Source: Betaproteobacteria bacterium (lineage in GTDB: Bacteria > Pseudomonadota > Gammaproteobacteria > Burkholderiales > JACQAP01). Taken from it: DNA of 64,000 nt. Location: NCBI GenBank assembly GCA_039931685.1, contig JBDTRK010000005.1, positions 564 through 64,563 on the forward strand. The letters run 5' to 3'. The notes beneath the pieces are model-generated. The model saw nothing but the letters and a program-made list of their open reading frames with translations, was not told the DNA's origin and made no database searches. Position numbers and translations under genes: made by a program. How positions within the stretch are numbered: the first letter of the stretch is position 1; each line of letters begins with the position of its first letter. Shown here piece by piece: positions 985 to 57,782 of this stretch.

Positions 985-1010
985 TCCATGGATTTGGTTA
1001 AACTAGCGCC

Positions 1011-2214: not shown

Positions 2215-2221
2215 AGCGGAA

Positions 2222-3390: not shown

Positions 3391-3405
3391 CGGGGAAACG
3401 AACGC

Positions 3406-3720: not shown

Positions 3721-3855
3721 AGATAACCTTTCAATTTTGACGGCCGAGCCTCACGCGCCTGGACTAACGCAGGCGTGGATCGCTGCGGCGCCCAGACTGG
3801 ACTCAATGGCGCGATTCTAGGTTAAAACCGCCACAGCGGATATCGCGTGCACACA

Positions 3856-4194: not shown

Positions 4195-4197
4195 GGG

Positions 4198-28399: not shown

Positions 28400-28828
28400 A
28401 TGAAAGACACCCTGAAGCCAGGCCTCACCCACTCCTTCCGTTTCCGCGTTCCCACCAACAAGACGGTCCCGCATCTTTACCCGGAATCCGATATGTTCCG
28501 GGAAATGCCGGAAGTGCTGGCGACCGGCTTCATGATCGGCCTTCTCGAGTGGGCCTGCGTGGAAACCCTGCGCCCGCATCTTGACTGGCCGGCCGAACAA
28601 ACGCTCGGCACCCACGTCAATTTTTCGCACGAGGCTGCCACGCCACCGGGTCTGCTGGTCACGGTTGATGTGCGCCTGGAAAAGATCGAAGGTCGCAGGC
28701 TCGTTTTCCACGTTGAGGCCCACGACGGGGTCGATCGTATTTCATCCGGAACCCACGAACGCTTCGTCATCGACGCAGCCCGCTTCCGCAGCAAAATGGC
28801 GCAGAAGGCGGAAAAGGCACAGGCTTGA
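28400..28828 (+). CDS. hot-dog fold thioesterase, FlK (fluoroacetyl-CoA thioesterase)-like family
   Basis: TVPHLYPES, ATGFMIGLLEWACV, SHEAATPPG and GSGTHERFVI align block-for-block with my recollection of FlK. Confidence 0.7.
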   Translation: MKDTLKPGLTHSFRFRVPTNKTVPHLYPESDMFREMPEVLATGFMIGLLEWACVETLRPHLDWPAEQTLGTHVNFSHEAATPPGLLVTVDVRLEKIEGRRLVFHVEAHDGVDRISSGTHERFVIDAARFRSKMAQKAEKAQA

Positions 28829-28880
28829 AACGGCATGCTGCATCAGGCTTGTTGCGATCTACCGCGAATGCATTAGGCGC

Positions 28881-31800
28881 ATGAGAGCGAACCCACCGTC
28901 GATTTATCGCACCATGGGCGAATGCGCCGTGCTCGCTGCCGTGTATACCGCAGCAGGCATCGGCGGTCTGCATTTCGCATTCTTCAATTCCGTCGTGACC
29001 ACGGTTTGGCCGCCCTCGGGCATTGCGCTGGCCGCGTTGTTGTTGTTCGGAATGCGGCTCGCGCCGGGCGTCGCCATTGGCGCCTTCGCCGTGAATCTGT
29101 GGAGTTCGGGTACCGTCATTGGCGCTTTCGGCGTAGCGATTGGCAATACCCTGGCAGTCGCTGTAGGGGTCATGGCACTGACCCGTTATTTCGGCTTCGA
29201 CAGTCGCATGACCAGGCTGCGGGACATTGTCGTGATGCTTTTCGTCGGGGCCGCGGCCAGCCCGCTGATCGCAGCCACAATCGGACCGTTCATGTTGATG
29301 GTTGGCGGCGCAATTTCACCGCATGAATACCCGAGCGTGTGGCTGTTCTGGTGGCTGGGCGATTCCCTCGGGGTCATCCTGTTCACGCCGCTGATCCTCG
29401 CCTGGTACAAGACGTCGCTTCAGGCAACCAGTCGGGACAGGCTGGCGATCGGACTCATCATCGTGCAGGCCTTTACTGCATTTCTCATCTTTTACGGCCT
29501 GCTGAGCGAACCCTTCAACACTCAACGTGTAACTTATGCGTTGCTGCCGATCGTCATCTGGCTGGCGCTAGCTTGTCCGCTGCGCTACACCGCAACGGCG
29601 AACATTCTGTTGTTCTTTATCGCTATCAGCGGAACCGCTGCCGGGCTTGGCCCCTACGCGGCCGGCGACATCGTCGGCAACGCCCTCTCGCTGCATGTGT
29701 TTCTGGTTGTCGTGACTTACACGACATCCCTTGTCGCCGGCGTCAACGCCGAACGCATCGAGGCCCTCACCAGGACTCGCGAAAGCGCCGATCGCTTCCG
29801 TAATCTGCTGGATCTATCGGCAGATTGGTACTGGGAGCAGGATGATCAGTTTCGGTTTACCTCGCGCGCCGGTCAGGGCCTGGAAAACAAAGGCTTCAGG
29901 CTTGACGAAGGCTTGGGCAAGACGCGCTGGGAACTCGACGTGGAGGGAATGACTGAAGCGGACTGGGCACCACACAAGGCGACGCTCAGGGCCCATCGAC
30001 CGTTCCGGGATTTCGTGCTCAGACGCCGCAATAGCGACGGCAAGCTGTTATATGTAAGTCAGAGCGGCGAGCCGGTCTTCGACAAAGAGGGTCGCTTCAA
30101 AGGCTTTCGTGGCGTTGGTCGCGACATTACTGAACGAGAGCTGGCGCAACGGGCATTGCAGGAAAGCGAAGCGCGCTTCCGCAGCCTTACCGAGTTGTCT
30201 TCGGACTGGTACTGGGAACAGGACCCGGAGCTGAACTTTACTTTTGTTTCCGACGCAATCTATGCCGTATCGAGCATCGATGCCAGCTTGCGTCGCGGAA
30301 GAAAGCGCTGGGAGATCCCGGGTCTGAGATTCGATCCGGTGACGCTCGAAGAACACAAGAAGTTGCTTTCCGAGCGCATGCCCTTCCGCGACTTCCGTTA
30401 CATCAGGGTGATGCCCGACGGTCATCCGCGGCACATTTCCGTCACGGGAGCACCTCTGTTCGATTCCGACGGCAAGTTCACCGGCTATCGCGGCGTCGGC
30501 AGGGAAGTTACTGCCGAGGTCACCGCCGAGCAACGCCTCGCCCGGCTTCGCGATTTCTATGCAGCCTTGTCGAAAGGCAACAATGCCATCATTCATGCGA
30601 CGAATGAGCGGCAGTTGTTCGACGAAGTCTGCAACATTGCGGTGACCTACGGACGAGTCATTTTCGCGCGCATCTGCCTGATCAACAGGCAAACTGGAGT
30701 ACTGGACGACATCGCCATCGCCGGAAACCACAAGGCCTACTCCGGACGCGTGCCGATCTCGACCGACCCCGACCGACCCGAAGGCCGCGGACCGACGGCC
30801 ATCGCGCTGCGCACCAACGTACCCGACGTATGTAACGACATCGAAAGCGATCCGCGCAATGAACTATGGCGCCCGTCCATGATGCACGCCGGGGTGCGCT
30901 CCTACGTCGTCTTTCCGCTTAGTCGAAACAGTGAAGTCGTCGGTTCGATGCATATCTACGCCGCGGAAAAAAACTGGTTCGACGACGATCTGGTAGCGCT
31001 GATCACCGAACTGAGTGCGAACCTGTCTTTCGCATTGGACAATTTTTCTCGGGAACAGGCGCGCAGGAGCGCGGAGCTGGCGCTACGCGCCAGCGAACAG
31101 CGCTTTCGCGACTTTGCCGAAGCCGCCGGTGAGTTCGTCTGGGAAAACGATCTCGAAGGCCGCTTCACTTATGTTTCGCCTCGCGTACTGGAATACACCG
31201 GCTATGCGCCGGAAGAGCTCGTCGGTCACACTGCGATCGAGTTCATGCCCCCCGGGGAAGGCGTGCGGGTCCGGCAATGGTTGACGGAAAACATGAACGC
31301 GGACCGCGCAATCCGCGGCATGGAGCACATGTTCCTGTCCAAGTCCGGCGAAATTTTATGGATGCAGGTCAGTGCTGTGTCGATCTGGGACGAGAACGGA
31401 CGGCCGCTCGGCCAGCGCGGCACGACACGCGATATTTCCTCAGTCAAGCGCTCCGAAGCGCGCATCAGCTATCTCGCCACTCGGGATCCGCTGACTGAAC
31501 TACCCAACAGATTGCTGTTCAACGACCGCCTTGAGCAAGGCCTGATCGCCGCGCGGCGCAAGCGCGACAAGCTCGGCGTGCTGTTTCTCGACCTGGATCG
31601 CTTCAAGAACATCAATGACTCGCTTGGCCACCACATCGGAGATCTGCTGCTCAAGGAAATCGCCTTGCGCATGGCGGCGTGCATTCGCAAAGGGGACACG
31701 CTCTCGCGCCTCGGCGGCGATGAATTTGTCGTGACGCTCGAAGGCCTGGCGCAGGCCGAAGACGCGGCACAGGTCGCCCTCAAGATCATCTCGACCATGC

Positions 31801-32774
31801 GAAAGCCTGTCGACGTGGATGGCCATACCCTGAACACATCATGCAGCGTTGGCATCAGCATCTTTCCAGACGACGCGGAAAACAGCCTCGAATTGATGAA
31901 GAATGCCGATACCGCCATGTATCACGCCAAGGAGCAGGGCCGAAACAATTTCAAGTTCTTCTCTCCGGAGATGAACCAGCGCGCGGTGGAACGTCATCGC
32001 CTCGAAACCGAACTGCGTCTGGCAATCGAGCAGGAGCAATTCGTCCTGCACTATCAGCCACAAGCGGATTTGAGAACCGGGCGGTTGATCGGCATGGAAG
32101 CGCTGATTCGCTGGCAGCACCCGGAGCGTGGCCTTGTGCCGCCGATGAGCTTCATCCCGGTTGCCGAAGAATCCGGGCTGATCGATCTCATCGGTGGCTG
32201 GGCGCTGCGCAGCGCCTGCGCGCAGAACCGGGCATGGCAGCAGGCTGGTTTTCCCCGTCTCAAAGTCGCGGTCAACATCTCGGCCCGCCAGCTCGACGAT
32301 CCGGACGCGCTTGCCGACGAAGTGATGAAGTTGCTGGGCGAAACGCACCTGGATGCGCAATACCTCGAACTGGAAATGACCGAGAGCGTGCTGTTGAAAA
32401 ATGTCAACGAAAACGTTGCCGTGCTGCGACGTCTCGGACAGGCCGGCGTCCGCATGGCCGTCGATGACTTTGGCACCGGATACTCGTCACTTGCCTATCT
32501 CAAGCAACTGCCGATCGACACGTTGAAAATCGATCGCAGTTTTGTGCGCGACATCGAGACCGACCCCGACGACGCCGCGATCATCCAGGCGATTATTGCC
32601 ATGGCCCACGGACTCGATCTGCGAGTGACAGCGGAAGGGGTGGAAACCGCAGGCCAGCTCGCCGCGCTGCGCAAGCTTGGTTGCGATGAGTTCCAGGGTT
32701 ATTTGCTGGCAAAGCCTTTGCCAACCGCAGATTTCCTGACCACACTTCTCGAACCCCTGCGTGCCGACCGGTAA
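28881..32774 (+). CDS. MASE1-PAS-PAS-GAF-PAS-GGDEF-EAL signalling protein
   Basis: ATG at 28881; the track ORF start at 28581 overlaps the thioesterase. MASE1 membrane domain (VWPPSGIALAALL), two WYWEQD PAS domains, a GAF domain, an intact GGDEF (RLGGDEF) and EAL (MEALIRW). Confidence 0.85.
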   Translation: MRANPPSIYRTMGECAVLAAVYTAAGIGGLHFAFFNSVVTTVWPPSGIALAALLLFGMRLAPGVAIGAFAVNLWSSGTVIGAFGVAIGNTLAVAVGVMALTRYFGFDSRMTRLRDIVVMLFVGAAASPLIAATIGPFMLMVGGAISPHEYPSVWLFWWLGDSLGVILFTPLILAWYKTSLQATSRDRLAIGLIIVQAFTAFLIFYGLLSEPFNTQRVTYALLPIVIWLALACPLRYTATANILLFFIAISGTAAGLGPYAAGDIVGNALSLHVFLVVVTYTTSLVAGVNAERIEALTRTRESADRFRNLLDLSADWYWEQDDQFRFTSRAGQGLENKGFRLDEGLGKTRWELDVEGMTEADWAPHKATLRAHRPFRDFVLRRRNSDGKLLYVSQSGEPVFDKEGRFKGFRGVGRDITERELAQRALQESEARFRSLTELSSDWYWEQDPELNFTFVSDAIYAVSSIDASLRRGRKRWEIPGLRFDPVTLEEHKKLLSERMPFRDFRYIRVMPDGHPRHISVTGAPLFDSDGKFTGYRGVGREVTAEVTAEQRLARLRDFYAALSKGNNAIIHATNERQLFDEVCNIAVTYGRVIFARICLINRQTGVLDDIAIAGNHKAYSGRVPISTDPDRPEGRGPTAIALRTNVPDVCNDIESDPRNELWRPSMMHAGVRSYVVFPLSRNSEVVGSMHIYAAEKNWFDDDLVALITELSANLSFALDNFSREQARRSAELALRASEQRFRDFAEAAGEFVWENDLEGRFTYVSPRVLEYTGYAPEELVGHTAIEFMPPGEGVRVRQWLTENMNADRAIRGMEHMFLSKSGEILWMQVSAVSIWDENGRPLGQRGTTRDISSVKRSEARISYLATRDPLTELPNRLLFNDRLEQGLIAARRKRDKLGVLFLDLDRFKNINDSLGHHIGDLLLKEIALRMAACIRKGDTLSRLGGDEFVVTLEGLAQAEDAAQVALKIISTMRKPVDVDGHTLNTSCSVGISIFPDDAENSLELMKNADTAMYHAKEQGRNNFKFFSPEMNQRAVERHRLETELRLAIEQEQFVLHYQPQADLRTGRLIGMEALIRWQHPERGLVPPMSFIPVAEESGLIDLIGGWALRSACAQNRAWQQAGFPRLKVAVNISARQLDDPDALADEVMKLLGETHLDAQYLELEMTESVLLKNVNENVAVLRRLGQAGVRMAVDDFGTGYSSLAYLKQLPIDTLKIDRSFVRDIETDPDDAAIIQAIIAMAHGLDLRVTAEGVETAGQLAALRKLGCDEFQGYLLAKPLPTADFLTTLLEPLRADR

Positions 32775-34015: not shown

Positions 34016-37006
34016 TCATTGCGAACGCAACCTGGCCAGCGTAATGACTTCCAGCCAGCGCAATTCAGTGGACGGATCGCTGCCGGGCGGAACGCGCTGG
34101 CTCAATTCCGGCCAGACGTCGCGCGCGCGACCGGTTTCCCCACGCGCAAGATGGCCGAGGATCATCGCGCCGGCCGCATAGTACGTATCCCGTGCCGGTG
34201 ACTCCACAGTTGCCCTTTTCAGCAATTCTCCTCCATGCTCGATCATCGCCTGGGCATCGCGCGCGCCGACCGCGACCAGCAGCCGGTACCAGTGCTGTGC
34301 CTCCGGCGTCAGGCGTTCACGGCAACGCGCGGGCAGCAGCTTGTTCCAGAACAGCGCCGCCTTGTCACGATCCATGTAAGGTGTGACGAAGCGTCCCACG
34401 TGAACCCACGCCGACTGCCAGACCCTGGGCGCGCTCGCGCCGCAATCCTGCACGCCCAGGCGCGCCATGGCCACGGCATCGCGCATGTGCGCAAGCACGA
34501 TGTCGTCCTGTCCTTCGATGACAAAGCGCATAACCAGCTGGGCCAGGCTGCGCGCCGACGGATTCTGGATTGACAGGCGCTTCCACGCCACTTCGTCGTG
34601 CGCCCCGTCCGACAGCATGGCGTCGATCGGCAGGTCGGTGATCAGCAACAGCACCGGCTCCGCCGCCTTCAGGTTCATGAAGCGCGCGCGCGCGGCGCGG
34701 TTATCAATAAACGGAAAATAATCCGAATTGACCGGCGCCCGGGAAATGCCGAAGAACGGATCCAGCAAGGCCTTGCCGCTGACCCGTCGCGCGCGCACGT
34801 CGTCGGTACTGAGGACGGCCATGCGGGCGAGGTCTTCGCGCAGCTCCGGCAGCGCGAAAACGCGCTCCTGCGGCAGGTCGAGTCTGGCATTCTTTCTTGC
34901 CACGATGAGTATGTTGTCGCGGTCGGCGATGTAGATCGCGTAATCCGTGAACCACGGCGACAAGGCCTTCGTTACCGATGCCACGGAGGCGAAATCGATT
35001 TCGTAAAGTTGCACCCATTGCACCAGCACGCCACCGTCGTTCAGGTGTCCCGCCACGTGTCGGTAAAATTCCTCGGTAAACAGGGATGCGATACCGCTGA
35101 CCCACGGATTGGAGGGCTCGGAAACAATGATGTCGTATTGTTTGTTGGCCACCGAGAAATAAGTCTTCGCATCCTCGATATGGATGCTGCTCCTCGGGTC
35201 TTCATAGGCCTTGCGGTTGCGCGGGAAGAAGCCCCTGCGCGCCGCCTCGATCATGCGTTCCTCGATTTCGATGGTATCGACCCGCTCGAGCCCGGGATCC
35301 GACAGCAGGATCTGCGTCGTCATGCCGGAACCGAAACCGACAACGGCGGCCGTCTTCGGCGCCGGATGAAGCATCAGTGGCAGCGCCCCCAGCAGTGTTT
35401 GCGTGACCTCGTCCACGCCCGCGGGGCCGGGACCCATGTTGACGGATGCGTCGAATTTGCCGTTCGTGGCCAGGCTGACTTCCGATCCCCTGCGGCTGAC
35501 GCTGACATTCGCCGTTTTACCGTCCCGCAAATACAAGACTTCATCCTGGGATGAGCGGGCGTAACCGTAACGGAATACGCCGGAAGTTATCGTGAGCGGA
35601 TCGACGTTGGCCGCCAGATAGGTGAACGCAAACGCCACCGCGCCGATGACGGCCGCGATCGTTGTTCGGCGCACGCGTGCGGGCGGAGCCAGTGTCGCGA
35701 ATAGCAGCAATCCCAGACCCAAATCCATCGCCGCACCGGCGAAAATCACGCCTTTGGCATTGAATGCCGGCATGAACACATGTGTGGCGAGCACGATGCC
35801 GGCGATGGCGCCCACCGTATTTGCCGCATACACGGCACCGATCGCGCGCTCACCCGCGCCCGCGCGCAGGGCCGCGAAGGTGATGACCGGCAGCGTCATC
35901 CCGGCGCAGAAAGTGGCCGGCAGCATGAGCAGCGATGCGATGGCGTGGCTGGCCCAGTTGAAGCCGGTATAGCCGGATTCGGTGCGGGCGAACGTGTTCA
36001 TCACCACGCTCATCCAGTCGAACGTGCGGCCGTAGACAAACAGCGTGGCCAGCGCCAGCAGGCCCATCGCCACTTGAATGACGGCGAGTAAATTGCGCAA
36101 GTCGGCGGTCGATTCGATTCGCCGTCGGATCCACAGGCCACCCAGCGCGAGGCCGAGAATGAAGGACGACAACATGAGTTCGAACGCGTGCGTGCTCGCG
36201 CCGAGCACCAGGCTGAGCATCCTCAGCCAACCGATCTCGTAGCAGAATGACGCCATGCCCGTGACCAGCGAGGCGACGAGCAGCAGGCGGTAATCCACGA
36301 TCGCGCCGCCCGCCACCGGGCGCCCGGCCGCCGGGGCCCTACCCGGCGCTTCGGGCAGGCTCATGTCCCTGACCAGCAACCAGGTCGCGAATGCCACGAC
36401 AATATTCAGCAGCCCTGCGGTCATGATGGTGCCCGGCAGGCCGACGTTTGGAATCAGCAGGAATCCGCTCGCCAGCACGCCGATCGCGCCACCGAGGCTG
36501 TTGGTGAAATAGAGCATGGACAGGCTGCGGCCGGCCCGGTCCGGCGCGTGGCGGATGAATCCGGCACTCATCAGTGGGAACGTCATGCCCAGCAGGATGG
36601 ATTGCGGCAGCAGCATGAGCGCGCCAAGCCCCCATTTGTAGGCATGCACCGCGGCGGGTGAACCCAGATTGGGAATGACGTGGGCGAAGGAAACCTGGGT
36701 AATGCGGTCGAAGGCGCCGTGAAACAGCAACGCCAGCAGCCCGGTGATGGCTTCGACCACCGCGTAGGCCAGCAGCACCCGCTTCCAGCGCGCGGAAAAA
36801 CGGCCTGCCAGCAGCGATCCGATGGCCAGGCCGCCCATGAAGATCACGAGCACCAACACCTGGGAATACGCCGCATGACCGAGAAACAGCTTCAGGTAAT
36901 GGCTCCAGATCGATTCGTAGATCAATCCGGAAAAGCCGGAAAGCGTAAAGATGCAGAGCAGCGCGACGGGTGCGGGAATTCTGCGCATGTATTGTGATCC
37001 TTTCAT
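34016..37006 (-). CDS. fused MFS-like membrane domain / spermidine-synthase-like methyltransferase-fold protein with C-terminal helical-repeat domain
   Basis: About 12 TM helices (FSGLIYESIWSHYLKLFLGH), then VVGFGSGMT...YDIIVSEPSNPWVSG (SpeE fold), then an about 270-aa extension. The start may be 37006 or 36988. Confidence 0.75.
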   Translation of the reverse strand: MKGSQYMRRIPAPVALLCIFTLSGFSGLIYESIWSHYLKLFLGHAAYSQVLVLVIFMGGLAIGSLLAGRFSARWKRVLLAYAVVEAITGLLALLFHGAFDRITQVSFAHVIPNLGSPAAVHAYKWGLGALMLLPQSILLGMTFPLMSAGFIRHAPDRAGRSLSMLYFTNSLGGAIGVLASGFLLIPNVGLPGTIMTAGLLNIVVAFATWLLVRDMSLPEAPGRAPAAGRPVAGGAIVDYRLLLVASLVTGMASFCYEIGWLRMLSLVLGASTHAFELMLSSFILGLALGGLWIRRRIESTADLRNLLAVIQVAMGLLALATLFVYGRTFDWMSVVMNTFARTESGYTGFNWASHAIASLLMLPATFCAGMTLPVITFAALRAGAGERAIGAVYAANTVGAIAGIVLATHVFMPAFNAKGVIFAGAAMDLGLGLLLFATLAPPARVRRTTIAAVIGAVAFAFTYLAANVDPLTITSGVFRYGYARSSQDEVLYLRDGKTANVSVSRRGSEVSLATNGKFDASVNMGPGPAGVDEVTQTLLGALPLMLHPAPKTAAVVGFGSGMTTQILLSDPGLERVDTIEIEERMIEAARRGFFPRNRKAYEDPRSSIHIEDAKTYFSVANKQYDIIVSEPSNPWVSGIASLFTEEFYRHVAGHLNDGGVLVQWVQLYEIDFASVASVTKALSPWFTDYAIYIADRDNILIVARKNARLDLPQERVFALPELREDLARMAVLSTDDVRARRVSGKALLDPFFGISRAPVNSDYFPFIDNRAARARFMNLKAAEPVLLLITDLPIDAMLSDGAHDEVAWKRLSIQNPSARSLAQLVMRFVIEGQDDIVLAHMRDAVAMARLGVQDCGASAPRVWQSAWVHVGRFVTPYMDRDKAALFWNKLLPARCRERLTPEAQHWYRLLVAVGARDAQAMIEHGGELLKRATVESPARDTYYAAGAMILGHLARGETGRARDVWPELSQRVPPGSDPSTELRWLEVITLARLRSQ

Positions 37007-49458: not shown

Positions 49459-49875
49459 TTATTTGTTGCCGCCGGACTGCTGTGCTTCCAGAACCTGTTC
49501 CACGCACAGCCTGATTCTCGATGCTTCGCGACCCCAGTACCGGTTCTGGCAATCCTCCAGAATGGGTCCGTGATCCCTGGCGTAAATCTCGAGAACGGGG
49601 CCGGCGGCAATGTCGTCGTCGATGCACTTCTTGACGATTCCCCAGCCCATTTCCTTGCGGCGCGTGCAGCGCACGACAATATTCTTGTACTCATCCGGAT
49701 AGCGCGCCACTTCGGCGCGGGCGGCCTTGTTTTCCTCGATGCATATTTGCGCCATCTCGGTACCGAACTCGGCGTTGGACATCAGACAGCCGGTGACGAT
49801 GTCGGCGTCTTCGTCGTCGGCAAGGCATGCACCGGATGCCAGGGCGAAGGCCAATGCAACAATTGTTGTCTTCAT
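49459..49875 (-). CDS. small exported 8-Cys protein, unknown function
   Basis: ATG at 49875 (MKTTIVALAFALASGA signal). Its stop lies 3 nt before the SBP start. Confidence 0.5.
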   Translation of the reverse strand: MKTTIVALAFALASGACLADDEDADIVTGCLMSNAEFGTEMAQICIEENKAARAEVARYPDEYKNIVVRCTRRKEMGWGIVKKCIDDDIAAGPVLEIYARDHGPILEDCQNRYWGREASRIRLCVEQVLEAQQSGGNK

Positions 49876-50072
49876 GGGCAATAGAAACTTTCATTGAACA
49901 TCAGTTTCAGAAAGGCGCAGAAAATCCGATCACGGCCCGGCGCCGGCATTGGCGCCAAGGGCCGATAGAATGCATAGTATTACAATCTTGCCGCCAACTC
50001 GCGCGCATTGCCTCCATCCGAAACCTTCGACGTTGCTCGGCGTCCAATTTGCAACGCGCCGACCGGTGTGGA

Positions 50073-50597
50073 TCAGGGCGTGTGCGCGGGCCCCGGGCTG
50101 ATTGCCGTCAGGATGCCTTGCATGAGCGCCAGCGGTGTGGGGGGACAGCCGGGTACTGCAACATCCACGGGAATTACATTGGCGATGCGCCCGCAGCTCG
50201 CATAACTCTCGCCGAAAATTCCGCCTGTGCAACCACAATCCCCCACTGCGACAACCAGCTTGGGCTCGGGCGTGGCGTCATAGGTGCGCCGCAGGGCGGT
50301 CATCATGTGGCGGGACACCGGCCCCGTAACCAGCAACATGTCCGCATGCCTGGGGCTGGCGACGAAGTGGATACCCAGACCTTCGAGGTTGTAGTAGGGA
50401 TTGGTCAATGCATGGATTTCGAGTTCACAGCCGTTGCAGGAGCCCGCGTCGACATGGCGTATCGCCAGCGACCCATTGAACGTCGCGAGGACTTCGCTTT
50501 GCAGTCGCTGCACGGCGACGCGCAAGTTTTCGTCGGCCTGCGACGGCGCTTCCGTTCTGATTCCCGAGCTTACGATGAGCTTGATCGTCTGGTACAT
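50073..50597 (-). CDS. NuoB/HycG/HyfI-like small subunit (EhrS-like)
   Basis: VDAGSCNGCELEI, ASPRHADMLLVTG, GDCGCTGGIF and VPGCPP. Ligands for one [4Fe-4S] cluster are retained. Confidence 0.85.
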   Translation of the reverse strand: MYQTIKLIVSSGIRTEAPSQADENLRVAVQRLQSEVLATFNGSLAIRHVDAGSCNGCELEIHALTNPYYNLEGLGIHFVASPRHADMLLVTGPVSRHMMTALRRTYDATPEPKLVVAVGDCGCTGGIFGESYASCGRIANVIPVDVAVPGCPPTPLALMQGILTAISPGPAHTP

Positions 50598-50612: not shown

Positions 50613-52154
50613 CTACAGGTCATGCCCGCTATAGCTCAGATTGAGTGACTTGTTGATCAGCGGAAAGTCCGGCACGATGTTTCCAATGACTGCATGTTCC
50701 AGCAGCGGCCAGTTTTGCCAGGATGGATCATGCGGATGCACCCGACGGATCCCGCCTGCCGCATCGGTATGGATGGCAATGAGGATCTCGCCGCGCCAGC
50801 CTTCTATCCAGCCCACGCCGAAGGCATCCCGCGGCGCTTCCGGCAGCGGCATGAAGACCGGGCCATCAGGTATCCGTTCCAGAATCTGCCGGCAAAGGCG
50901 GATGGCCTCGGCAACCTCCTCGAAACGTACGGTCACGCGCGCAGCCACGTCGCCCGCCTGACGCGTCGCGATGCGCACGTCGAGCCGATCGTAAGGTGCC
51001 GACGGAAAATCCACGCGCAGGTCCACCGCTTGCGCACTCGCGCGTCCGGCCAATCCGGTCAGGCCCAGCCGTGCGGCCAGTTCGGGCGTGATGCGCCCCG
51101 CTTCCATGAACCGGTCCTGCAGACCTGCGTGGTCGTCGTAAATGCCGCGCAGGCGCGCCACTGATTTTTCGATCGCTTCGAGGGCTGCGAACTGCTCGCT
51201 GATGCCGGCGCGGTCGAGGTCGGCAGCGACGCCTCCGGGAACGATCGCATCCATCAGGTAGCGGTGTCCGAACAGCCCGGCATTGGCACGAAGCAACTGT
51301 TCCTTGAGACTCGAGAACTGGGCCAGGCCGAAAGCGAACCCGGCATCGTTGCCCAGGGCACCGAGATCCCCCAGGTGGTTCGCGATGCGTTCGCGCTCCA
51401 GCATCAGGGCACGCAGCCAAAGCGCCCTGTCAGGCGCGGATATTGCGCTCAGGTTCTCCACCGCCATTGCGTAGGCCCACGCATAGGCGACGGTGGAATC
51501 GCCACTGATGCGGCCCGCCAGGCGGGCGCCCTGCTGGAGCGTCATCGCCTCGAATCGTTTCTCGATCCCCTTGTGCGTGTAGCCCAATCGCTCTTCCAGG
51601 CGCAGCACGCGCTCGCCGATGACGGAGAAGCGGAAATGTCCCGGTTCGATGGTTCCAGCGTGGACCGGACCGACCGCGACTTCGTGCACGCCGTCTCCCT
51701 CGACGGCAACAAATGCATAATTGTCCGGCGCGGATGCATGGACCATAGATGCATCGACATCGCTGCGCAGCGGAAACCGGTCGGCCGGCCACGCGCCGTG
51801 GCGCAACCACGGGCGTTTATCCGGTTGGCCGGCCGCCTCGAGCCCCATCAGGTCCGCAACCGCCCGCTGCATGCGGTTCGCCACCGGGAAAATGTCGGCG
51901 ATGCCGGGATAGACTTCGTTCCTTACCGGCAGCGTCAGACAGACCAGCCCGGACCGACTGACAAGCGCGGCATGCACCGCAAATGCGAAACCACCCGGGC
52001 GCCGGTCGCTCGCCCATAACGCGAGCAGACGCCCGCCGCGCCGGCGCACCTGCTCGCACAGGCGCCGCCAGCCGGCCTCATCGACCTCGGCCTGCCAGGC
52101 CGCAACCGCGCCCGGCAGCGGATCGAACTCGAATTCGATATCTTCCACGCGCAC
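50613..52154 (-). CDS. fused NuoC-NuoD / HycE-HyfG-like large subunit lacking [NiFe] ligands (EhrL-like)
   Basis: The FPVANRMQRAVADLMGLE, GPVHAGTIEPGHFRF and LGYTHKGIEKRF blocks are intact. The Cys motifs are replaced by RISGDSTVAY and C-terminal SLNLSYSGHDL. Confidence 0.85.
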   Translation of the reverse strand: MRVEDIEFEFDPLPGAVAAWQAEVDEAGWRRLCEQVRRRGGRLLALWASDRRPGGFAFAVHAALVSRSGLVCLTLPVRNEVYPGIADIFPVANRMQRAVADLMGLEAAGQPDKRPWLRHGAWPADRFPLRSDVDASMVHASAPDNYAFVAVEGDGVHEVAVGPVHAGTIEPGHFRFSVIGERVLRLEERLGYTHKGIEKRFEAMTLQQGARLAGRISGDSTVAYAWAYAMAVENLSAISAPDRALWLRALMLERERIANHLGDLGALGNDAGFAFGLAQFSSLKEQLLRANAGLFGHRYLMDAIVPGGVAADLDRAGISEQFAALEAIEKSVARLRGIYDDHAGLQDRFMEAGRITPELAARLGLTGLAGRASAQAVDLRVDFPSAPYDRLDVRIATRQAGDVAARVTVRFEEVAEAIRLCRQILERIPDGPVFMPLPEAPRDAFGVGWIEGWRGEILIAIHTDAAGGIRRVHPHDPSWQNWPLLEHAVIGNIVPDFPLINKSLNLSYSGHDL

Positions 52155-52164: not shown

Positions 52165-53613
52165 CTATCCGATCAATCTCGCCGCCTGGCGATACCAGTC
52201 GGCGAGATACGGTGGTATGAACAGTCCGAGCAGCAACACCAGCGCGAGATGCACGAATACAGGGATCAACGCCGGCGGGTGCGGCAGTCGTTTGCCTGAA
52301 GTCTCGCCGAACACCATCGTCTGCACCTTGCCGAACACGGCGGCAAAGGCGACCCCGAGCGCAACCAGCAGGATCGGTGTCGCCCAGGGATGCTCATGCA
52401 TCGCCGTTGTCAAAATCAGGAACTCGCTGGCGAACACGCCAAATGGCGGTATGCCCAGAATGGCAAGACTGCCGAGCATCAATCCCCAGCCTATTGTGGG
52501 ATTGGTGACGACCAGCCCGCGGATGTCCGCGATCAGTTGCGTACCGCTTTTCTGTGCCGCATGACCGACCGTGAAAAATATCGCCGACTTGGTTAGCGAA
52601 TGAACTGTCATATGCAGCAGCGCGGCGAATGTGGCGACCGCGCCTCCCATGCCGAAGGCAAAGGTGACGATGCCCATGTGCTCGATCGACGAGTAGGCGA
52701 AGAGCCGCTTGACATCCTTCTGGCGCGACAGGAAGAAAGCCGCCACCACGACGCTGAACAGACCGAAACCCATCATCAGGTTCCCCGCGACTCCATTCTG
52801 CAAGGCGCCGTCGACCAGCACTTTGGTACGCACCACGGCATACAGCGCGACGTTGAGCAGAAGCCCGGACAGCACGGCGGAAACCGGCGTCGGACCCTCG
52901 GCATGCGCGTCGGGCAACCAGCTATGCAGCGGCGCGAGGCCCACTTTGGTGCCGTAGCCGACCAGCAGGAAGACAAATGCCAGCGACACTACCGTCGGCT
53001 CCAGTTGTCCCTTGACTTCGTTCAGGTGCGTCCACAGCAGCGCATTGCCGCCCGCCCCGAGCACTTTCTCCGCGGCAAGGTAAAGCAGGATCGTTCCGAA
53101 CAGCGCTTGCGCAATGCCGACTCCGCAAAGGATAAAATACTTCCAGGCGGCCTCGAGACTCGCGGGCGTTCGATACAGACTCACCAGCAGGACTGTCGTC
53201 AGCGTGGCAGCCTCCATCGCCACCCAGAGGATGCCCAGATTGTTGGTGAGCAGTGCCAGCAACATGGTGAACATGAACAGCTGGAACATGCTGTGATAGA
53301 GCCGCAAACGCGCCGGGGTGAGCTTGCCCGCGTGCTGTTCGTTGCGCATGTAGGGAAGGCTGAACAACGATGTCGTGAAGCCGACGAACGCGGTGAGGGC
53401 AACGAGGAACACGTTGAAGGAATCCACAAAGAACATTTCGCCAAGCACCCGGATCGGCCCCTCGCCGACGATTCTGGCGGTCAAAACGGCTGCAGCGGCG
53501 AGCGTCAGGAAGCTCATGACCGCGCTCAACTCTCCGGCGCGATCCTTATGCCCGTACAAGGCCAGCAGGAGCCCGCCGGCGAGCGGCATGCCGAGCAGTA
53601 CGATCAGTTCCAT
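52165..53613 (-). CDS. NuoN/HyfF-like antiporter-type membrane subunit
   Basis: ATG at 53613 (MELIVLLGMPLAGG). Mrp/NuoLMN-type blocks (WLPDAHAEGPTPVSA). The track start at 54165 is an extension across the upstream gene. Confidence 0.8.
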   Translation of the reverse strand: MELIVLLGMPLAGGLLLALYGHKDRAGELSAVMSFLTLAAAAVLTARIVGEGPIRVLGEMFFVDSFNVFLVALTAFVGFTTSLFSLPYMRNEQHAGKLTPARLRLYHSMFQLFMFTMLLALLTNNLGILWVAMEAATLTTVLLVSLYRTPASLEAAWKYFILCGVGIAQALFGTILLYLAAEKVLGAGGNALLWTHLNEVKGQLEPTVVSLAFVFLLVGYGTKVGLAPLHSWLPDAHAEGPTPVSAVLSGLLLNVALYAVVRTKVLVDGALQNGVAGNLMMGFGLFSVVVAAFFLSRQKDVKRLFAYSSIEHMGIVTFAFGMGGAVATFAALLHMTVHSLTKSAIFFTVGHAAQKSGTQLIADIRGLVVTNPTIGWGLMLGSLAILGIPPFGVFASEFLILTTAMHEHPWATPILLVALGVAFAAVFGKVQTMVFGETSGKRLPHPPALIPVFVHLALVLLLGLFIPPYLADWYRQAARLIG

Positions 53614-53615: not shown

Positions 53616-54278
53616 TCAGCGTTCCTTGAGTTTTTCCAGGTGCCGGGTGTCGAGGCTGTCGAACGTTTCCCGGATCTGGAAAAAGAAAATGCCGAAAATG
53701 AAGGTTCCAACCAGGACGTCCAACGCGACGCCGAGCTCGACGACCATGGGCATGCCGTAGGTAGCGCTGGTGGCGGCGAAGAACAACCCGTTCTCCATTG
53801 CCAGGAAGCCCACGACCTGCGGGATGGCCTTGCGCCGCGTGATCATCATCAGGAAAGACAACAGCACGCAGGCGATGGCCACGCCCAGAGAGTGACGCGT
53901 AACGGTACTTGCCTGCTCGGATATCGGCAACGCCAGATTGAGGGAAAAGATCACCACGACGATTCCGATCATCATCGTCGTCGGAATATTGATCAGGGTT
54001 TCCCTGTCCCATTTCACGTTCAGCCGAATGATCAGCCGATGCAGTATCCAGGGCAGCGCAAACACCTTGAGAACCACGGTCAGAACGGCCGAATAATACA
54101 GATGATGCTGGCCCGTGCTGTAAGCGACGACAGCCGTGCTGACCGAGAGAACGAGTCCTTGCCACGCAAACAGATAAACCAGCGACAGGACGCGGCGTTG
54201 CGACAACATGGCGAACGCTATCAGCAGCAAAAGTGCCGCCAGCACGTTGATCAGCTGTCCGGAAAAGGATGGGGGCAT
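53616..54278 (-). CDS. HyfE-like small membrane subunit
   Basis: ATG at 54278. About 7 TM helices in 220 aa. Its position and size equal HyfE, and the block GFLAMENGLFFAA is typical. Confidence 0.7.
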   Translation of the reverse strand: MPPSFSGQLINVLAALLLLIAFAMLSQRRVLSLVYLFAWQGLVLSVSTAVVAYSTGQHHLYYSAVLTVVLKVFALPWILHRLIIRLNVKWDRETLINIPTTMMIGIVVVIFSLNLALPISEQASTVTRHSLGVAIACVLLSFLMMITRRKAIPQVVGFLAMENGLFFAATSATYGMPMVVELGVALDVLVGTFIFGIFFFQIRETFDSLDTRHLEKLKER

Positions 54279-54279: not shown

Positions 54280-55224
54280 TCAGCGCTCCAACGCCAGCCG
54301 GACCAGGATGCCCAGAACCGCCAGCAGGAAAGCGGTGCCGAGGAATTCGGGTGCGCGAAAGATGCGCAGCTTCGCCGACAGCGTTTCAACGAGCGCGAGC
54401 CCGGCCCCGCCCACAAGCAGCTTTAATGACAGCGCGACCAGCGCCAGCGGCATGAGCAGCCAGTCTCCGGCCGTCACGATTCCCCAGGGCAGGAACAGGG
54501 CGATGCCAATGGCACTGTAGTTCAACAGCTTCATCGCCGACGCCCACTCGATTAGCGCCAGATGCCGCGCGGAATACTCGAGCGTCATCGCCTCATGAAT
54601 CATCGTCAGTTCCAGGTGCGTCGCCGGATTGTCGACGGGAATACGCGCGTTCTCGGCGAGCGCGACCATGTAAAAGGCGACCGCCGCGAAAGCGAGACTG
54701 GGATAGAGCACGAATTCGCGATGTGCGATGGTCTCGACGATCGTGGTAAGCGAAGTCGACTGGGCGATCAGGACCGGCGTGAACAACACCATCAGTAACG
54801 CGGGCTCGGCCAGGCAGGCCACCAGCATTTCGCGGCGCGCCCCCATGCTGCCGAATGCGGTGCCTACATCCATCGCCGCCAGCGCCGCGAACAGGCGGGC
54901 AAGTGCAAACAGCCCCACCAGCGCAATCACGTCCGCCGCCGCCGAGAAAGCCAGGTCGGTCGCCAGAATGGGGACGATGCTGGCGACGAGCATCATGCAT
55001 CCGAATTGCAGATAGGGCGCCATCCTGAACAGGGACGACGCGTGCTCTGCAAGCACCGCATCCTTGTGGAAGAGCTTGTGCAACACCCGGTACGGCTGCA
55101 ATACGCCGGCACCACTCTTGTTCTGCAGCCACGCGCGGCATTGGTTGACCCATCCCAGCAAAAGGGGCGCCAACGCGACGATGAGCACGGTCTGCAGCGC
55201 CTGCGAAAGAAGGGACTGGATCAT
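54280..55224 (-). CDS. NuoH/HycD/HyfC-like membrane subunit
   Basis: ATG at 55224 in an ATGA overlap with the upstream stop. Block ENARIPVDNPATHLELTMIHEAMTLEYS is typical of HycD/NuoH. Confidence 0.8.
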   Translation of the reverse strand: MIQSLLSQALQTVLIVALAPLLLGWVNQCRAWLQNKSGAGVLQPYRVLHKLFHKDAVLAEHASSLFRMAPYLQFGCMMLVASIVPILATDLAFSAAADVIALVGLFALARLFAALAAMDVGTAFGSMGARREMLVACLAEPALLMVLFTPVLIAQSTSLTTIVETIAHREFVLYPSLAFAAVAFYMVALAENARIPVDNPATHLELTMIHEAMTLEYSARHLALIEWASAMKLLNYSAIGIALFLPWGIVTAGDWLLMPLALVALSLKLLVGGAGLALVETLSAKLRIFRAPEFLGTAFLLAVLGILVRLALER

Positions 55225-57233
55225 CGAATGAAGAACAACAGAATGATCAAGGTGGCGAAGCTGTACATGAGATAAATATTGATGCGGCCGTGTTGCAGAA
55301 TGCCGATGGCTGCGGAAAGCCTCTCCACAAGGCGGGCCACCGGCAGGTAGAGCGCGTACCACAACTTGTCTTCGACGATGCCGTGGTAACGGGGGCGATC
55401 GTCGAACGGACTCGGCACCTGACGGTCGATACGGAAGATCGGCTCGAAAATCTGCTTGATCGGTTGGCCGAAGCCCTCGGCGGTATCCTGCATGCGTGCC
55501 GTTTGCTGGGGGAAACCACAGTCCCACGCGGGTCCACGGCGCACGCGGCCATGATAAAGCTTGCGCACCAGAACCACCGAAAGCATCAACGCACCGGCAA
55601 TTCCAATTAAAAACAGGAGCGGGCTGTAACTCGAGCGCTGCGCTGACGTGGCCGTGATGAACAGCCATGACTGGGCGCCGGCCGCTCCGACGATCTCCCC
55701 GGTCAACATTTGGGTCGTCTTGCCCAGCGCGGCAAGCACCCAGACGGGGGCAAGCCCCAGCACGACGCAGCCCGATGCCAGCCAGCCCAGTCCCAGCCGC
55801 TCTGGCCAATTGGCGTCGTGGGCCTCCGCGAGCTTCGCCTCACGCGGCCGTCCCAGAAAAATGACACCGTAGAATTTGACCATGACATACCCGGCGAGCG
55901 CGACAGCAAGAACAAAGGCGGCCGAACCAACCGGAACCAGCATGCTCAGGTAAGAACTCGGCAGGCCCGGCGTGGCCAGAAATGCCTGCAGCAGCAGCCA
56001 CTCCGATACGAATCCGTTGAGCGGCGGCAGGCCGGCGATGGCAATGGTGCCGACCAGGCCGAGCCATGCGACCCACGGCATGCTGCGGATCAACCCTCCC
56101 AACTTGCCCAGGCTCCGCTCCCTGGTCGAGTGCAGAACGGTCCCGGTCACGAGGAACAGCAGACTCTTGAAAAATGCGTGATTGAGGCAGTGATACAGCG
56201 TTCCGGCCAGGGCAAGCGCGGCGAGGGCGTTTGCCTCGTAGACATGGAAAATCAGCGTCAGGCCGACGCCCGCCAGAATGATGCCCATGTTCTCGATGGA
56301 GGAATACGCCAGCAGGCGCTTCATGTCGGTCTGCACGGCGGCGAACATGACCCCGAACAATGCCGTCATCAGGCCCAATGTCGTCGCCAGCACACCCCAC
56401 CAGACCAGTTGAATCTGCAGCAGGTCAAAGGTCACCCGCAACAATCCATAGATTGCCGTCTTCAGCATTACGCCGCTCATCAATGCCGAGATCGGCGACG
56501 GAGCGGCCGGATGGGCTTCGGGCAGCCAGGCATGGACCGGCAGAAATCCGGCTTTGGCGCCAAACCCGAACAAGGCCAGCAGAAATGCCGCACTCGCCCA
56601 GAAATGATCGAGGTGGCTCGCCCTCATGGTCGCGAAAGTGTAATCGCCGTGCCCGCCCTGCATCACTCCAAAGCACAGCAGAATGCCGATCGCACCGATA
56701 TGCGCCAGCAACAGGTAAAGGAAACCGGCGCTTCGGATCGCCGGAATCTTGTGGTTGCTGATGACCAGGAAATAGGATGCGAGTGCCATCGTTTCCCACG
56801 CGACCATGAACAGGTAGGCGTCGTCCGCAAGCATGACGGCCGTCATCGCAACAAGAAATAGGTGGTACTGCAGGCAGTGCAATCCGGGCGCAGTGCCTTC
56901 GCCCGCGCGGAAGTAGCCTGCGGAATAAATGGAAATACCGGCCGAGGCCCCTCCCAGCAGCACCAGGAAAAAAGCCGACAGCGCATCCAGCCGCATATGG
57001 AAGGGAAGATCGGGCAGGCCCAGCGCGAGAACAGCCGTCTGCGGAACGTCGCCCAGGCCGACAAGGCCGGCGCCGGCAAGGACCAGCGAGGCCACAGCAC
57101 TCGCCGGAAACAGCATGTGCGCGATGAAGCGCAGGTTATGCGGCGCGGCGAGCCCGAGGAACCCGGCGACCATCCAGAATACGATGACGCCGAGCACCAC
57201 GTCCAACGGCAGAACCTGCGTCAGGCCCATCAT
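55221..57233 (-). CDS. NuoL/HycC/HyfB-like antiporter-type membrane subunit
   Basis: 670 aa. WETMALASYFLV, WLPEAHPAAPSPISALMSG, and a long C-terminal extension as in HyfB. Confidence 0.85.
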   Translation of the reverse strand: MMGLTQVLPLDVVLGVIVFWMVAGFLGLAAPHNLRFIAHMLFPASAVASLVLAGAGLVGLGDVPQTAVLALGLPDLPFHMRLDALSAFFLVLLGGASAGISIYSAGYFRAGEGTAPGLHCLQYHLFLVAMTAVMLADDAYLFMVAWETMALASYFLVISNHKIPAIRSAGFLYLLLAHIGAIGILLCFGVMQGGHGDYTFATMRASHLDHFWASAAFLLALFGFGAKAGFLPVHAWLPEAHPAAPSPISALMSGVMLKTAIYGLLRVTFDLLQIQLVWWGVLATTLGLMTALFGVMFAAVQTDMKRLLAYSSIENMGIILAGVGLTLIFHVYEANALAALALAGTLYHCLNHAFFKSLLFLVTGTVLHSTRERSLGKLGGLIRSMPWVAWLGLVGTIAIAGLPPLNGFVSEWLLLQAFLATPGLPSSYLSMLVPVGSAAFVLAVALAGYVMVKFYGVIFLGRPREAKLAEAHDANWPERLGLGWLASGCVVLGLAPVWVLAALGKTTQMLTGEIVGAAGAQSWLFITATSAQRSSYSPLLFLIGIAGALMLSVVLVRKLYHGRVRRGPAWDCGFPQQTARMQDTAEGFGQPIKQIFEPIFRIDRQVPSPFDDRPRYHGIVEDKLWYALYLPVARLVERLSAAIGILQHGRINIYLMYSFATLIILLFFIR

Positions 57234-57490
57234 TACGCAGTTCGCGGTGGAACAGACGGCGTCATCGGGCCGACTCGCCGACGACGGTCAGACAACCCGC
57301 GATGTGGATTACTACGGCGGCGGTGGCGATCCGAACCGGCGCATCCTCCCTCGCACCGGACCCGCAATCGTGCTGCCTTCCCGCACCGACGGATCCGCAA
57401 TCAGCGCCTGCGTCACCTGGAAGTGATCGGGGTTGCGTCGGGACGCCGACTCTTCCGGTTCGGGACGGCCTAGATTCACCCATGTCTAAG

Positions 57491-57511
57491 TGTACGCCCA
57501 TTTCATGTACA
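57491..57511. promoter_or_regulatory. candidate operator in the divergent region between the RHH gene and the ehr-like operon
   Basis: TGTAC-N11-GTACA in the only AT-rich patch of the spacer. No consensus was matched. Confidence 0.25.
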
Positions 57512-57578
57512 TTCAAGACAACATCAAGCATCTCTGATTACGATATCATGAACATACAATATTTTTCGGAGCCCTGCC

Positions 57579-57782
57579 GTGGAAAACAAGACCGGCCGTT
57601 TGACTTTACTCATCGATCCGAGAAAGAAGCAGATATTCGAGGAGATCTGCTCGGAACGGGACCTGACGCCATCGCAAGTCGTGCGCCAACTGATTCGCGA
57701 GTACATCATCGAATATGCGGGAAACCGGAAGCTACCCCCCTGGCTCGTGAATGCAGCGACAAGGAGCAAGCGCAAGGATTAG
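57579..57782 (+). CDS. ribbon-helix-helix (CopG/Arc-like) protein
   Basis: GTG start. RLTLLIDPRKKQIFEEICSERDLTPSQVVRQLIREYI has the beta-strand/helix/helix pattern of RHH repressors. Basic tail. Confidence 0.55.
   Translation: MENKTGRLTLLIDPRKKQIFEEICSERDLTPSQVVRQLIREYIIEYAGNRKLPPWLVNAATRSKRKD

Follow-up and report, generated by a model that had tools for sequence, protein, structure and literature searches.

A hydrogenase-like large subunit and its operon

A 64,000-nt stretch of DNA from an uncultured betaproteobacterium of the order Burkholderiales (positions 564 to 64,563 of contig JBDTRK010000005.1; hereafter, the window) contains six tightly packed minus-strand genes for a membrane-bound complex. 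The fifth of these genes (50613..52154, minus strand), which encodes a fused NuoC-NuoD/HycE-like protein of 513 aa without the cysteines of the [NiFe] centre, is the subject of this work. Its product (hereafter, the query) is almost certainly the large subunit of a complex of the Ehr/Hyq type, a stripped-down relative of the group-4 membrane hydrogenases and of complex I, as judged from (i) the replacement of its metal-binding motifs in two alignments, (ii) its place in a cluster of cysteine-free homologs, and (iii) the invariant gene order B-C-E-F-G-I. The gene starts with a GTG codon at 52154, preceded by the Shine-Dalgarno-like sequence GGAAAG, and ends with the stop codon at 50613-50615. 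A first-pass annotation of this DNA had reported the 513-aa open reading frame (ORF) without stating its strand; the ORF exists but is located on the minus strand, and the plus-strand reading of 50613-52154 was rejected because its frame is riddled with stop codons.

The description of the protein as a fusion of NuoC- and NuoD/HycE-type domains is borne out by sequence and structure comparisons, and the blocks quoted in its support (FPVANRMQRAVADLMGLE, GPVHAGTIEPGHFRF, and LGYTHKGIEKRF) are all present in the translation. The query matches the Pfam domain Complex1_30kDa (NuoC-type, residues 23-135) followed by Complex1_49kDa (NuoD-type), has no Pfam match to NiFeSe_Hases, and scores far under the cut-offs of the NCBIfam models for NuoD, NuoCD, and FpoD. 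In a phmmer search of the PDB, the closest solved relative by sequence is Escherichia coli HycE (7z0s_E, E=2e-57, query residues 78-510), with NuoD/49-kDa subunits of complex I, MbhL of MBH, and the large subunit of MBS ranked far behind. No solved structure in the PDB is closer than HycE, and therefore no Ehr-type structure has been deposited. The AlphaFold2 monomer model of the query (predicted TM-score, 0.84; mean predicted local distance difference test score, pLDDT, 77) likewise has HycE 7z0s_E as its top Foldseek match, with a TM-score of 0.84. Two regions of the model have pLDDT values below 50, namely residues 146-195 around the β1-β2 loop and residues 478-513 at the C-terminus with the former L2 motif. 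These low-scoring stretches are also the most conserved segments of the protein; their low pLDDT would be expected if they adopt their fold only when packed onto the small subunit and the NuoH-like subunit, as far as a monomer model can suggest.

The metal-binding motifs were registered in a phmmer alignment to HycE and in a MAFFT alignment with E. coli HycE and HyfG, and the two registrations agree. The former L1 motif, R-I-S-G-D-S-T-V-A-Y (residues 215-224; 51483..51512, minus strand), aligns with R-V-C-G-I-C-G-F-A-H of HycE, and the former L2 motif, which forms the C-terminus N-L-S-Y-S-G-H-D-L directly before the stop codon (residues 505-513; 50616..50642, minus strand), aligns with D-P-C-Y-S-C-T-D-R. 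The four columns of the cysteine ligands are thus occupied by Ser217, Ser220, Ser507, and Gly510, encoded by AGT, TCC, AGC, and GGG, respectively, and the L1 histidine column by Tyr224. The central claim of the first-pass annotation, that all four ligands are replaced and that no cysteine is left for a NiFe centre, is therefore confirmed: the whole subunit has only three cysteines (C33, C72, and C421), all distant from the former site, and the sequence alignments with HycE and HyfG place no cysteine at either motif. Restoring the four cysteines would take at least five base changes, and no frameshift could restore them. Since the cysteine-free pattern recurs across diverse full-length representatives, the replacement is evidently a family trait and neither chance nor a sequencing error; by these sequence comparisons, an error of sequencing and a mis-registration of the motifs, both of which had been named as grounds that would overturn the claim, can be excluded as causes of the cysteine loss. 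The large subunit cannot house a canonical [NiFe] centre. The query ends at the column of the HycE arginine in C-T-D-R, whereas HycE and HyfG run about 32 residues further in the MAFFT alignment; this C-terminal tail is cleaved off in the course of maturation. The query has no such maturation extension, and the window ORFs scanned include nothing that resembles hycI.

The other five genes encode four membrane subunits and one iron-sulfur subunit. The first gene (55221..57233, minus strand) encodes a HyfB/NuoL-like antiporter-type membrane subunit of 670 aa, which matches Pfam Proton_antipo_M and the NCBIfam model NF005086, "hydrogenase 4 subunit B" (880 bits; cut-off, 667). Its stop codon is overlapped by the ATG start of the gene for a HycD/HyfC/NuoH-like membrane subunit of 314 aa (54280..55224, minus strand; Pfam NADHdh, E=2e-33), which was aligned with HycD, HyfC, and NuoH. 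They are followed by genes for a HyfE-like small membrane subunit of 220 aa (53616..54278, minus strand), which matches NF008556, "hydrogenase 4 membrane subunit", with E=1e-27, under its cut-off, and for a HyfF/NuoM-N-like antiporter-type subunit of 482 aa (52165..53613, minus strand), which matches Proton_antipo_M and NF005045, "hydrogenase 4 subunit F" (869 bits; cut-off, 543). The sixth gene (50073..50597, minus strand) encodes a NuoB/HycG-like small subunit of 174 aa (Pfam Oxidored_q6, E=6e-31) with four cysteines for one [4Fe-4S] cluster. All six genes are intact, and their G+C content at third codon positions (about 0.75) is typical of the coding frames of the genome. The genes of the large and small subunits are 15 nt apart in the window; in some relatives, they are separated by a gap of up to about 600 nt or by an extra ORF of 35 or 78 aa (L001 11636-11743; L086 10766-11002) that could encode an optional seventh small subunit.

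The residues associated with proton translocation are conserved throughout the membrane arm. The HyfB-like subunit has Glu147 in transmembrane helix 5 (TM5), Lys227 in TM7, Lys258 in TM8, His348 and His352 in TM11, and Glu411 in TM12, and the HyfF-like subunit has Glu134 in TM5, Lys223 in TM7, His334 and His338 in TM11, and Glu397 in TM12, which are the patterns of E. coli HyfB and HyfF, respectively. The HyfE-like subunit, aligned with E. coli HyfE, retains the NuoK-type membrane glutamates of MENG and VE(L/I)G. In the small subunit, C54-x-x-C57, C121, and C151 occupy the columns of the cluster-binding cysteines in HycG, HyfI, and NuoB and are kept in 76 to 78 of 78 relatives, while the long C-terminal extension of HycG and HyfI is missing. 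The complex thus appears from its sequences to be a working proton-translocation scaffold with one Fe-S cluster and not a wreck.

The operon contains no equivalents of HyfA/HycB, HyfD, or HyfH/HycF and no NuoI/HycF/EchF-type subunit with two [4Fe-4S] clusters, and none of the latter type recurs in 80 related loci. Around these 80 loci, we clustered the flanking ORFs of at least 90 aa, as well as small ORFs of at least 30 aa. At the 90-aa threshold, no partner is present in more than about 18% of the loci. Over both size classes, the recurrent flanks are restricted to syntenic housekeeping genes (MetG, ApbC), a gene resembling spermidine synthase (13 loci), and a gene for a ribbon-helix-helix protein (RHH_9). 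Genes for ferredoxin, flavodoxin, formate dehydrogenase, Hyp and Nif proteins, HycB, FdhF, or NuoEFG do not recur across the 80 loci, and no hyp, nif, formate dehydrogenase, ferredoxin, or NuoI/HycF-type genes occur among the window ORFs scanned. The cassette is a self-contained module without a dedicated electron-input subunit, which limits its possible donors.

The cysteine-free family and its relatives

A word-indexed search revealed at least 8000 relatives of the large subunit, a figure that includes CxxC-containing proteins; the closest among the matches listed (82-90% identity) come from Burkholderiales metagenome bins, and a look-up by exact sequence gave no entry identical to the query. 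A HMMER search of representatives at 50% identity identified 1132 clusters at E<=1e-30. We aligned 87 full-length representatives (34-58% identical to the query) with the query, HycE, and HyfG. Of the resulting 90 sequences, 63 (62 representatives and the query) have no cysteine at any of the four positions, most commonly with the patterns S-S-S-G, S-T-S-G, S-E-S-G, and S-N-S-G, whereas all four cysteines are present in 19 sequences (HycE, HyfG, and 17 representatives with the motifs R-x-C-G-x-C...E-L-C-Y-[AS]-C-x-D-R).

The residues of the former site are strongly conserved in the cysteine-free class. Asp219 is present in 92% of its members, and this position is never Asp in the CxxC relatives; Ser507 and Gly510 are present in 92% and 97%, respectively, and are replaced by Cys in the CxxC relatives. 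Asp270, which is located in the motif G-N-D-A-G (codon 51345..51347, minus strand) and is specific to the cysteine-free class by translation and alignment, is Asp in 90% of this class and mostly Gly in the CxxC relatives; it aligns with Asp139 of Thermus Nqo4 (by phmmer, with residues counted by hand) and with an Asp of E. coli NuoCD. Ser217, Asp219, Ser/Thr220, Asp270, Ser507, and Gly510 are kept down to about 35% identity. The loop G-P-V-H-A-G-x-I-E-P-G-H-F-R-F, with the hydrogenase-type Glu170, is near-invariant in both classes, and its segment I169-E170-P-G-H-F-R-F is invariant in the relatives.

In a neighbour-joining tree of 82 representatives with HycE, HyfG, and NuoCD, built without bootstrap support, the cysteine-free proteins group together as neighbours of the CxxC relatives, with the query placed deep inside their cluster. 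The CxxC relatives are 35-40% identical to the query, are the nearest true-hydrogenase neighbours in the tree, and probably represent group 4f [NiFe] hydrogenases. They share with the query the GP(I/V)HAGxIEPGHFRF loop and the C-terminal framework DFPLINKSF...Y..-D; however, they have the four cysteines, usually Gly at position 270, a hydrophobic residue at 219, and a D-R end. Four proteins (P0128, P0129, P0130, and P0244) keep the first cysteine alone, in R-x-C-G-D-S combined with N-L-[AS]-Y-A-G. We rejected these "C-G-D-S" proteins as evolutionary intermediates, as they are nested inside the cysteine-free cluster and look like secondary Ser-to-Cys changes. The simplest reading of the alignment and the tree is that a single ancient loss of the NiFe ligands, with a gain of two aspartates, was followed by long diversification under purifying selection. 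The conservation of the replacement residues shows a former NiFe site that was remodelled instead of decaying.

A scan of one genome per species identified at least 598 relatives; the search patterns are common to the CxxC forms, which are thus included in this number. Among the best 80 of these at least 598, the hosts are Gallionella, Sideroxyarcus, Thiobacillus, Nitrosomonadales, Burkholderiaceae, Paraburkholderia, and Methylibium, as well as Steroidobacteraceae, Acidobacteriaceae, Acidithiobacillus, Thiomonas, Nitrospirota, and Competibacter. Cultured Cupriavidus necator, C. metallidurans CH34, Variovorax, Burkholderia, Paraburkholderia phymatum, Rhizobium, and Azospirillum have the operon as well, at 46-58% identity, on large replicons that are recorded as plasmids. 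All 64 loci with a complete cassette share the gene order B-C-E-F-G-I.

The name Ehr (Ech- or energy-converting-hydrogenase-related) was reportedly introduced for Geobacter by Coppi in 2005, and the concept is said to have been generalised by Marreiros in 2013. Ehr complexes are defined as relatives of group-4 hydrogenases without the NiFe-binding cysteines, whose function is not established (PMC6349859; PMC10284858; PMC12342949). A study of comammox Nitrospira places Ehr next to the group 4f hydrogenases (PMC10284858), and Ehr has been described in candidate phyla (PMC6349859); it is considered probably not a hydrogenase but a complex in which redox reactions are probably linked to the translocation of charge (PMC6349859; PMC12342949). 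The assignment of the query to this group in the first-pass annotation agrees with the published definition and with the position of the query inside the cysteine-free cluster, which groups apart from true hydrogenases and NuoD in the tree (no support values). As in Geobacter sulfurreducens (EhrA-D/S/L, GSU0739-45), Nitrospira, and Mycobacterium tuberculosis (Rv0082-Rv0087), NuoB-like, NuoH-like, and antiporter-like subunits are encoded together with the large subunit; nothing essential differs from the Ehr complexes described, and the window operon represents a Burkholderiales member with a divergent RHH_9 gene upstream.

The closest described architecture is that of hyqRBCEFGI of Azorhizobium caulinodans, a six-subunit "core" version of complex I (PMC2650096; PMC3357923), in which HyqG is a 504-aa NuoC::D fusion without both CxxC motifs and HyqI has four cysteines (PMC3357923). 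The window operon shares with Hyq the B-C-E-F-G-I order, a fused NuoC::D subunit of about 504-513 aa without CxxC, a NuoB-like subunit with four cysteines, and the lack of HyfA, HyfD, and HyfH equivalents, and the query is about 46-49% identical to alphaproteobacterial Hyq-type proteins. The authors of the Hyq studies highlighted three invariant cysteines of HyqG (258, 491, and 497) and argued that elements of the quinone cavity are conserved (PMC3357923). In P0136, an alphaproteobacterial Hyq-type representative from Falsiroseomonas (504 aa, 49% identical to the query), the corresponding residues are C261, C491, and C497, whereas the query has Gly268, Ile500, and Leu506; thus, the Hyq architecture is common to both, but that candidate site is not. 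Other differences from Hyq are the lack of nif genes among the window ORFs scanned and the upstream gene, which is a divergent RHH_9 gene in the window and a co-directional helix-turn-helix (HTH) regulator in the hyq-type locus of Rhizobium ruizarguesonis.

Compared with the E. coli hydrogenases, the membrane subunits match HyfB, HyfC, HyfE, and HyfF of Hyf residue for residue at the pump positions, the nearest solved relative of the large subunit is HycE of Hyc (formate hydrogenlyase, 7Z0S), and the small subunit has the C-x-x-C cluster motif of hydrogenase small subunits instead of the tandem CC of complex I. Unlike Hyc and Hyf, the query complex has no NiFe ligands, maturation peptide, HyfA/HycB, HyfH/HycF, HyfD, or C-terminal extension of HycG/HyfI, and the window ORFs scanned include no formate dehydrogenase, hyp, or hycI genes. 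With complex I it shares the fold, the module architecture, the N2-type cluster, and the aspartate at position 270 (Asp139 of Nqo4), and NuoD has no NiFe site either. Unlike complex I, the complex lacks NuoE/F/G/I, NuoA, and separate NuoJ/K and has two antiporter-like subunits only; moreover, His38 and Tyr87 of Nqo4 correspond to Ile169 and Gly218, respectively, in an alignment in which a one-residue shift would put Glu170 at the His38 column.

Routine annotations of this family are misleading, as the first-pass annotation had warned for the names "hydrogenase-4" and "formate hydrogenlyase". Relatives of the query are named "Ni,Fe-hydrogenase III large subunit" by JGI and "NADH-quinone oxidoreductase subunit C" by NCBI, with some NCBI records naming them "hydrogenase expression protein HypE", and the subunits encoded next to them appear in PGAP annotations as "hydrogenase 4 subunit B/F" or "formate hydrogenlyase". 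The misnaming of Ehr/Hyq operons by PGAP, which mixes these names with "NADH-quinone oxidoreductase" and "hydrogenase expression protein HypE", is explained by the equivalog models NF005045 and NF005086, which score far above their cut-offs. Such names could inflate estimates of H2 metabolism in metagenomes.

The locus alone represents one more Burkholderiales member of a named and very widespread family and, being from an uncultured organism, leaves the function of Ehr no more testable than in the cultured hosts that carry the operon. The Ehr/Hyq complexes are among the few abundant complex-I-type machines without a demonstrated reaction, stand evolutionarily between hydrogenases and complex I, and occur in iron, sulfur, and nitrite oxidisers, rhizobia, Burkholderia, Cupriavidus, and M. 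tuberculosis. The present analysis adds the Asp219/Asp270 signature of the class, the intact state of the pump and cluster residues, the lack of a conserved partner gene, and the link to Hyq together with the differences from it. The former active site is under purifying selection, and the class-specific Asp219 and Asp270 are obvious targets for mutagenesis.

Possible reaction of the complex and alternative explanations

With moderate confidence, we propose that the complex is a minimal ferredoxin(-like):quinone oxidoreductase and proton pump that is possibly reversible, whose donor, acceptor, and direction we infer. In the proposed mechanism, a soluble cytoplasmic low-potential carrier, most plausibly a ferredoxin docking where NuoI/HycF normally sits, would hand electrons to the cluster of the NuoB-like subunit at the surface that NuoI/HycF covers in the larger relatives. 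The electrons would cross the single Fe-S cluster one by one and reach a quinone, which would occupy the remodelled acidic pocket where the NuoD-, NuoB-, and NuoH-like subunits meet. Driven by changes in the protonation of this pocket, protons would be translocated via the NuoH-like channel and both antiporter modules, with a stoichiometry, estimated by analogy with complex I, of perhaps about 3 H+ per 2 e-. The forward direction, from a low-potential donor to quinone, is favoured because at this ratio the uphill transfer from ubiquinol to ferredoxin would be energetically implausible.

The pocket that once held NiFe is rebuilt with conserved Ser, Gly, and Asp residues, and Asp219 and Asp270 are placed beside the retained glutamate of the β1-β2 loop, Glu170. 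A quinone would be the one plausible acceptor needing no catalytic metal. The match of Asp270 to an aspartate of the complex I quinone site, at a position that is mostly Gly in the CxxC relatives, gives a hint in favour of a quinone acceptor. Most of the hosts (Gallionella, Thiobacillus, Burkholderia, Cupriavidus, Nitrospirota, and Acidobacteria) live aerobically or microaerophilically and have quinone pools, which hints at the same acceptor, as does the conservation of quinone-cavity elements argued for Hyq (PMC3357923).

Six points weigh against this proposal. The canonical quinone ligands of complex I are absent in the phmmer alignment, as described above for His38 and Tyr87 of Nqo4. Quinone binding, the donor, and activity are yet to be demonstrated for any Ehr. 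As there is no NuoI-like subunit, the docking site of the donor is hypothetical. The monomer model is poor exactly at the segments of the presumed pocket, residues 146-195 and 478-513. Expression data from other species are uninformative or conflicting: growth on formate raises the level of the complex in Geobacter (PMC7894505), and H2 does not induce it in Nitrospira (PMC12342949). Finally, the genetics of Hyq in Azorhizobium ties a homologous complex to H2 and not to ferredoxin (PMC3357923).

In one alternative, the complex is a Hyq-type "endo-hydrogenase" that oxidises or evolves H2 against the quinone pool via a non-canonical, cysteine-poor catalytic site. The first-pass annotation stated that no biochemical function is known for the group; indeed no enzyme has been purified, but the in vivo H2 genetics of hyqRBCEFGI was overlooked (PMC2650096; PMC3357923). 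Deletion of hyq slows diazotrophic growth (PMC2650096), and in a hupSL background it removes about 80% of the very high microaerobic H2 evolution, which persists in a nifK mutant (PMC2650096; PMC3357923). Given the shared layout, with HyqG lacking CxxC and HyqI having four cysteines (PMC3357923), and 46-49% identity to Hyq-type proteins, these data could apply to the window complex. The Hyq authors inferred an H2:ubiquinone oxidoreductase, yet they called its Ni,Fe site "uncertain, if not unlikely" (PMC3357923), and the Hyq enzyme was never purified or analysed for metals. Moreover, the query has Gly, Ile, and Leu in the three columns of the invariant HyqG cysteines. The hyq operon is under NifA/sigma-54 control (PMC2650096; PMC3357923), whereas the window ORFs scanned include no nif or hyp gene and the sigma-54-like match upstream of the operon is weak and not above chance. 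In other hosts, the Ehr-like cluster Rv0081-87 of M. tuberculosis occurs without NiFe maturation genes (PMC6728331), and the Ehr of Nitrospirales and Nitrospira, studied in 2025, was not induced by H2 (PMC12342949). We consider this explanation unlikely.

To a similar degree, we doubt that the complex is an Mrp-related cation/proton antiporter, either independent of redox chemistry or gated by it, with the NuoB/NuoCD module as a structural cap or as a redox or ion sensor. This would agree with the intact antiporter-like subunits of the membrane arm, with the lack of an electron-input subunit and of a conserved partner gene, and with a remodelled pocket rich in Asp, Glu, and Ser that is suited to cation or proton binding. 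However, near-perfect conservation is seen both for the four Fe-S ligands and for the β1-β2 loop, through which redox chemistry is coupled to the membrane arm of complex I and hydrogenases; such conservation would come at a high cost if the role were purely structural. Moreover, the cassette contains no MrpE/F/G-type subunits detectable by Pfam.

A further and distinctly improbable explanation is that the pocket formed by Ser217, Asp219, Ser220, Asp270, Glu170, and Ser507 constitutes a new catalytic site for H2 or for other small-molecule redox chemistry without a Cys-ligated [NiFe] centre. By analogy, the Azorhizobium genetics hints at such a cysteine-free, H2-active pocket, and, if true, an unrecognised hydrogenase class would be present in thousands of aerobic bacteria.

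The loss of the catalytic ligands and the lack of a partner module would also be expected of a decaying, functionless relic of a hydrogenase operon, which we regard as very improbable. The six genes are intact and tightly packed with an ordinary third-position G+C content, the architecture is invariant across many phyla, the replacement and pump residues are under strong purifying selection, and all Ehr subunits were detected by proteomics in Geobacter, where they are more abundant on formate (PMC7894505). A working machine is favoured over a relic because the Fe-S cysteines, the pump residues, the NuoK-type glutamates, the replacement residues, and the Glu170 loop are all conserved. A genuine [NiFe] hydrogenase with mis-registered or corrupted motifs, as its fold, its nearest solved relative HycE, and the two CxxC pairs of relatives at 35-40% identity might suggest, has a negligible chance of being correct, given that two alignment methods agree, at least five substitutions would be needed for the four cysteines, the only cysteines (C33, C72, and C421) are far from the site, and the same Ser, Gly, and Asp residues occur in dozens of independent assemblies at 35-90% identity.

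Upstream regulator and neighbouring genes

Divergently from the operon, the window encodes a 67-aa ribbon-helix-helix protein (57579..57782, plus strand; RHH_9, Pfam PF19839, E=1e-31). Its homologs adjoin the cassette on the upstream side in 21 related loci, and in 18 of the 59 upstream regions examined; they are mostly divergent and at times co-directional. Among small ORFs of at least 30 aa, this protein alone recurs around the cassette, and it is a candidate for a dedicated regulator of the operon on the basis of this genomic context. Its identification with HyqR was rejected as unsupported, the co-directional upstream gene in Rhizobium being annotated as an HTH regulator. The intergenic DNA beside the RHH_9 gene (approximately 57480-57600) is unusually AT-rich. 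Neither a promoter nor a terminator was found in scans of the two operon ends. One sigma-54-like site with two mismatches was found upstream of the operon (57364-57378, minus strand); the match is weak, and matches to the sigma-54 pattern are no commoner in the window than chance predicts.

The other window ORFs scanned encode ordinary functions of an aerobic heterotroph, including the GlcDEF glycolate oxidase, IlvD, a pyrroloquinoline quinone (PQQ) dehydrogenase, an ammonium transporter, a MacB-type exporter, and GGDEF/EAL sensors. A 1397-aa MASE1-GAF-PAS-GGDEF-EAL signalling protein is encoded in the window at 28581-32774 (plus strand). L002, a relative with 82% identity, has a similar multi-PAS/GAF protein (327-4493) right beside the RHH gene and the cassette; close relatives thus differ by a rearrangement of the local gene order. 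Downstream of the small-subunit gene, at a distance of 191 bp, the window encodes a 140-aa protein with a signal-peptide-like N-terminus, several cysteines, and no Pfam match (49459-49881, minus strand). A homolog with 45% identity is present at the same position in L002, the closest long relative, and in no other locus.

A fused major facilitator superfamily transporter/spermidine-synthase-like protein of 996 aa is encoded in the window at 34016-37006 (minus strand). In 13 of the 80 related loci, shorter spermidine-synthase-like ORFs are located no more than about 6 kb from the cassette, and such a gene is annotated beside the cassette in Burkholderia pyrrocinia (L088 1738-2574). The window operon has no adjacent equivalent of the YoaK-family (DUF1275) membrane protein that is encoded just upstream of the cassette on plasmid pTA1_4 of Rhizobium ruizarguesonis (L087 2450-3202) and on a replicon of B. 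pyrrocinia (L088 2924-3691), two hosts that are only distantly related. A small acylphosphatase gene, rare and absent from the window, is located beside the cassette in six loci (e.g., L001 3834-4109); HypF carries an acylphosphatase domain, and hence this gene may be of interest.

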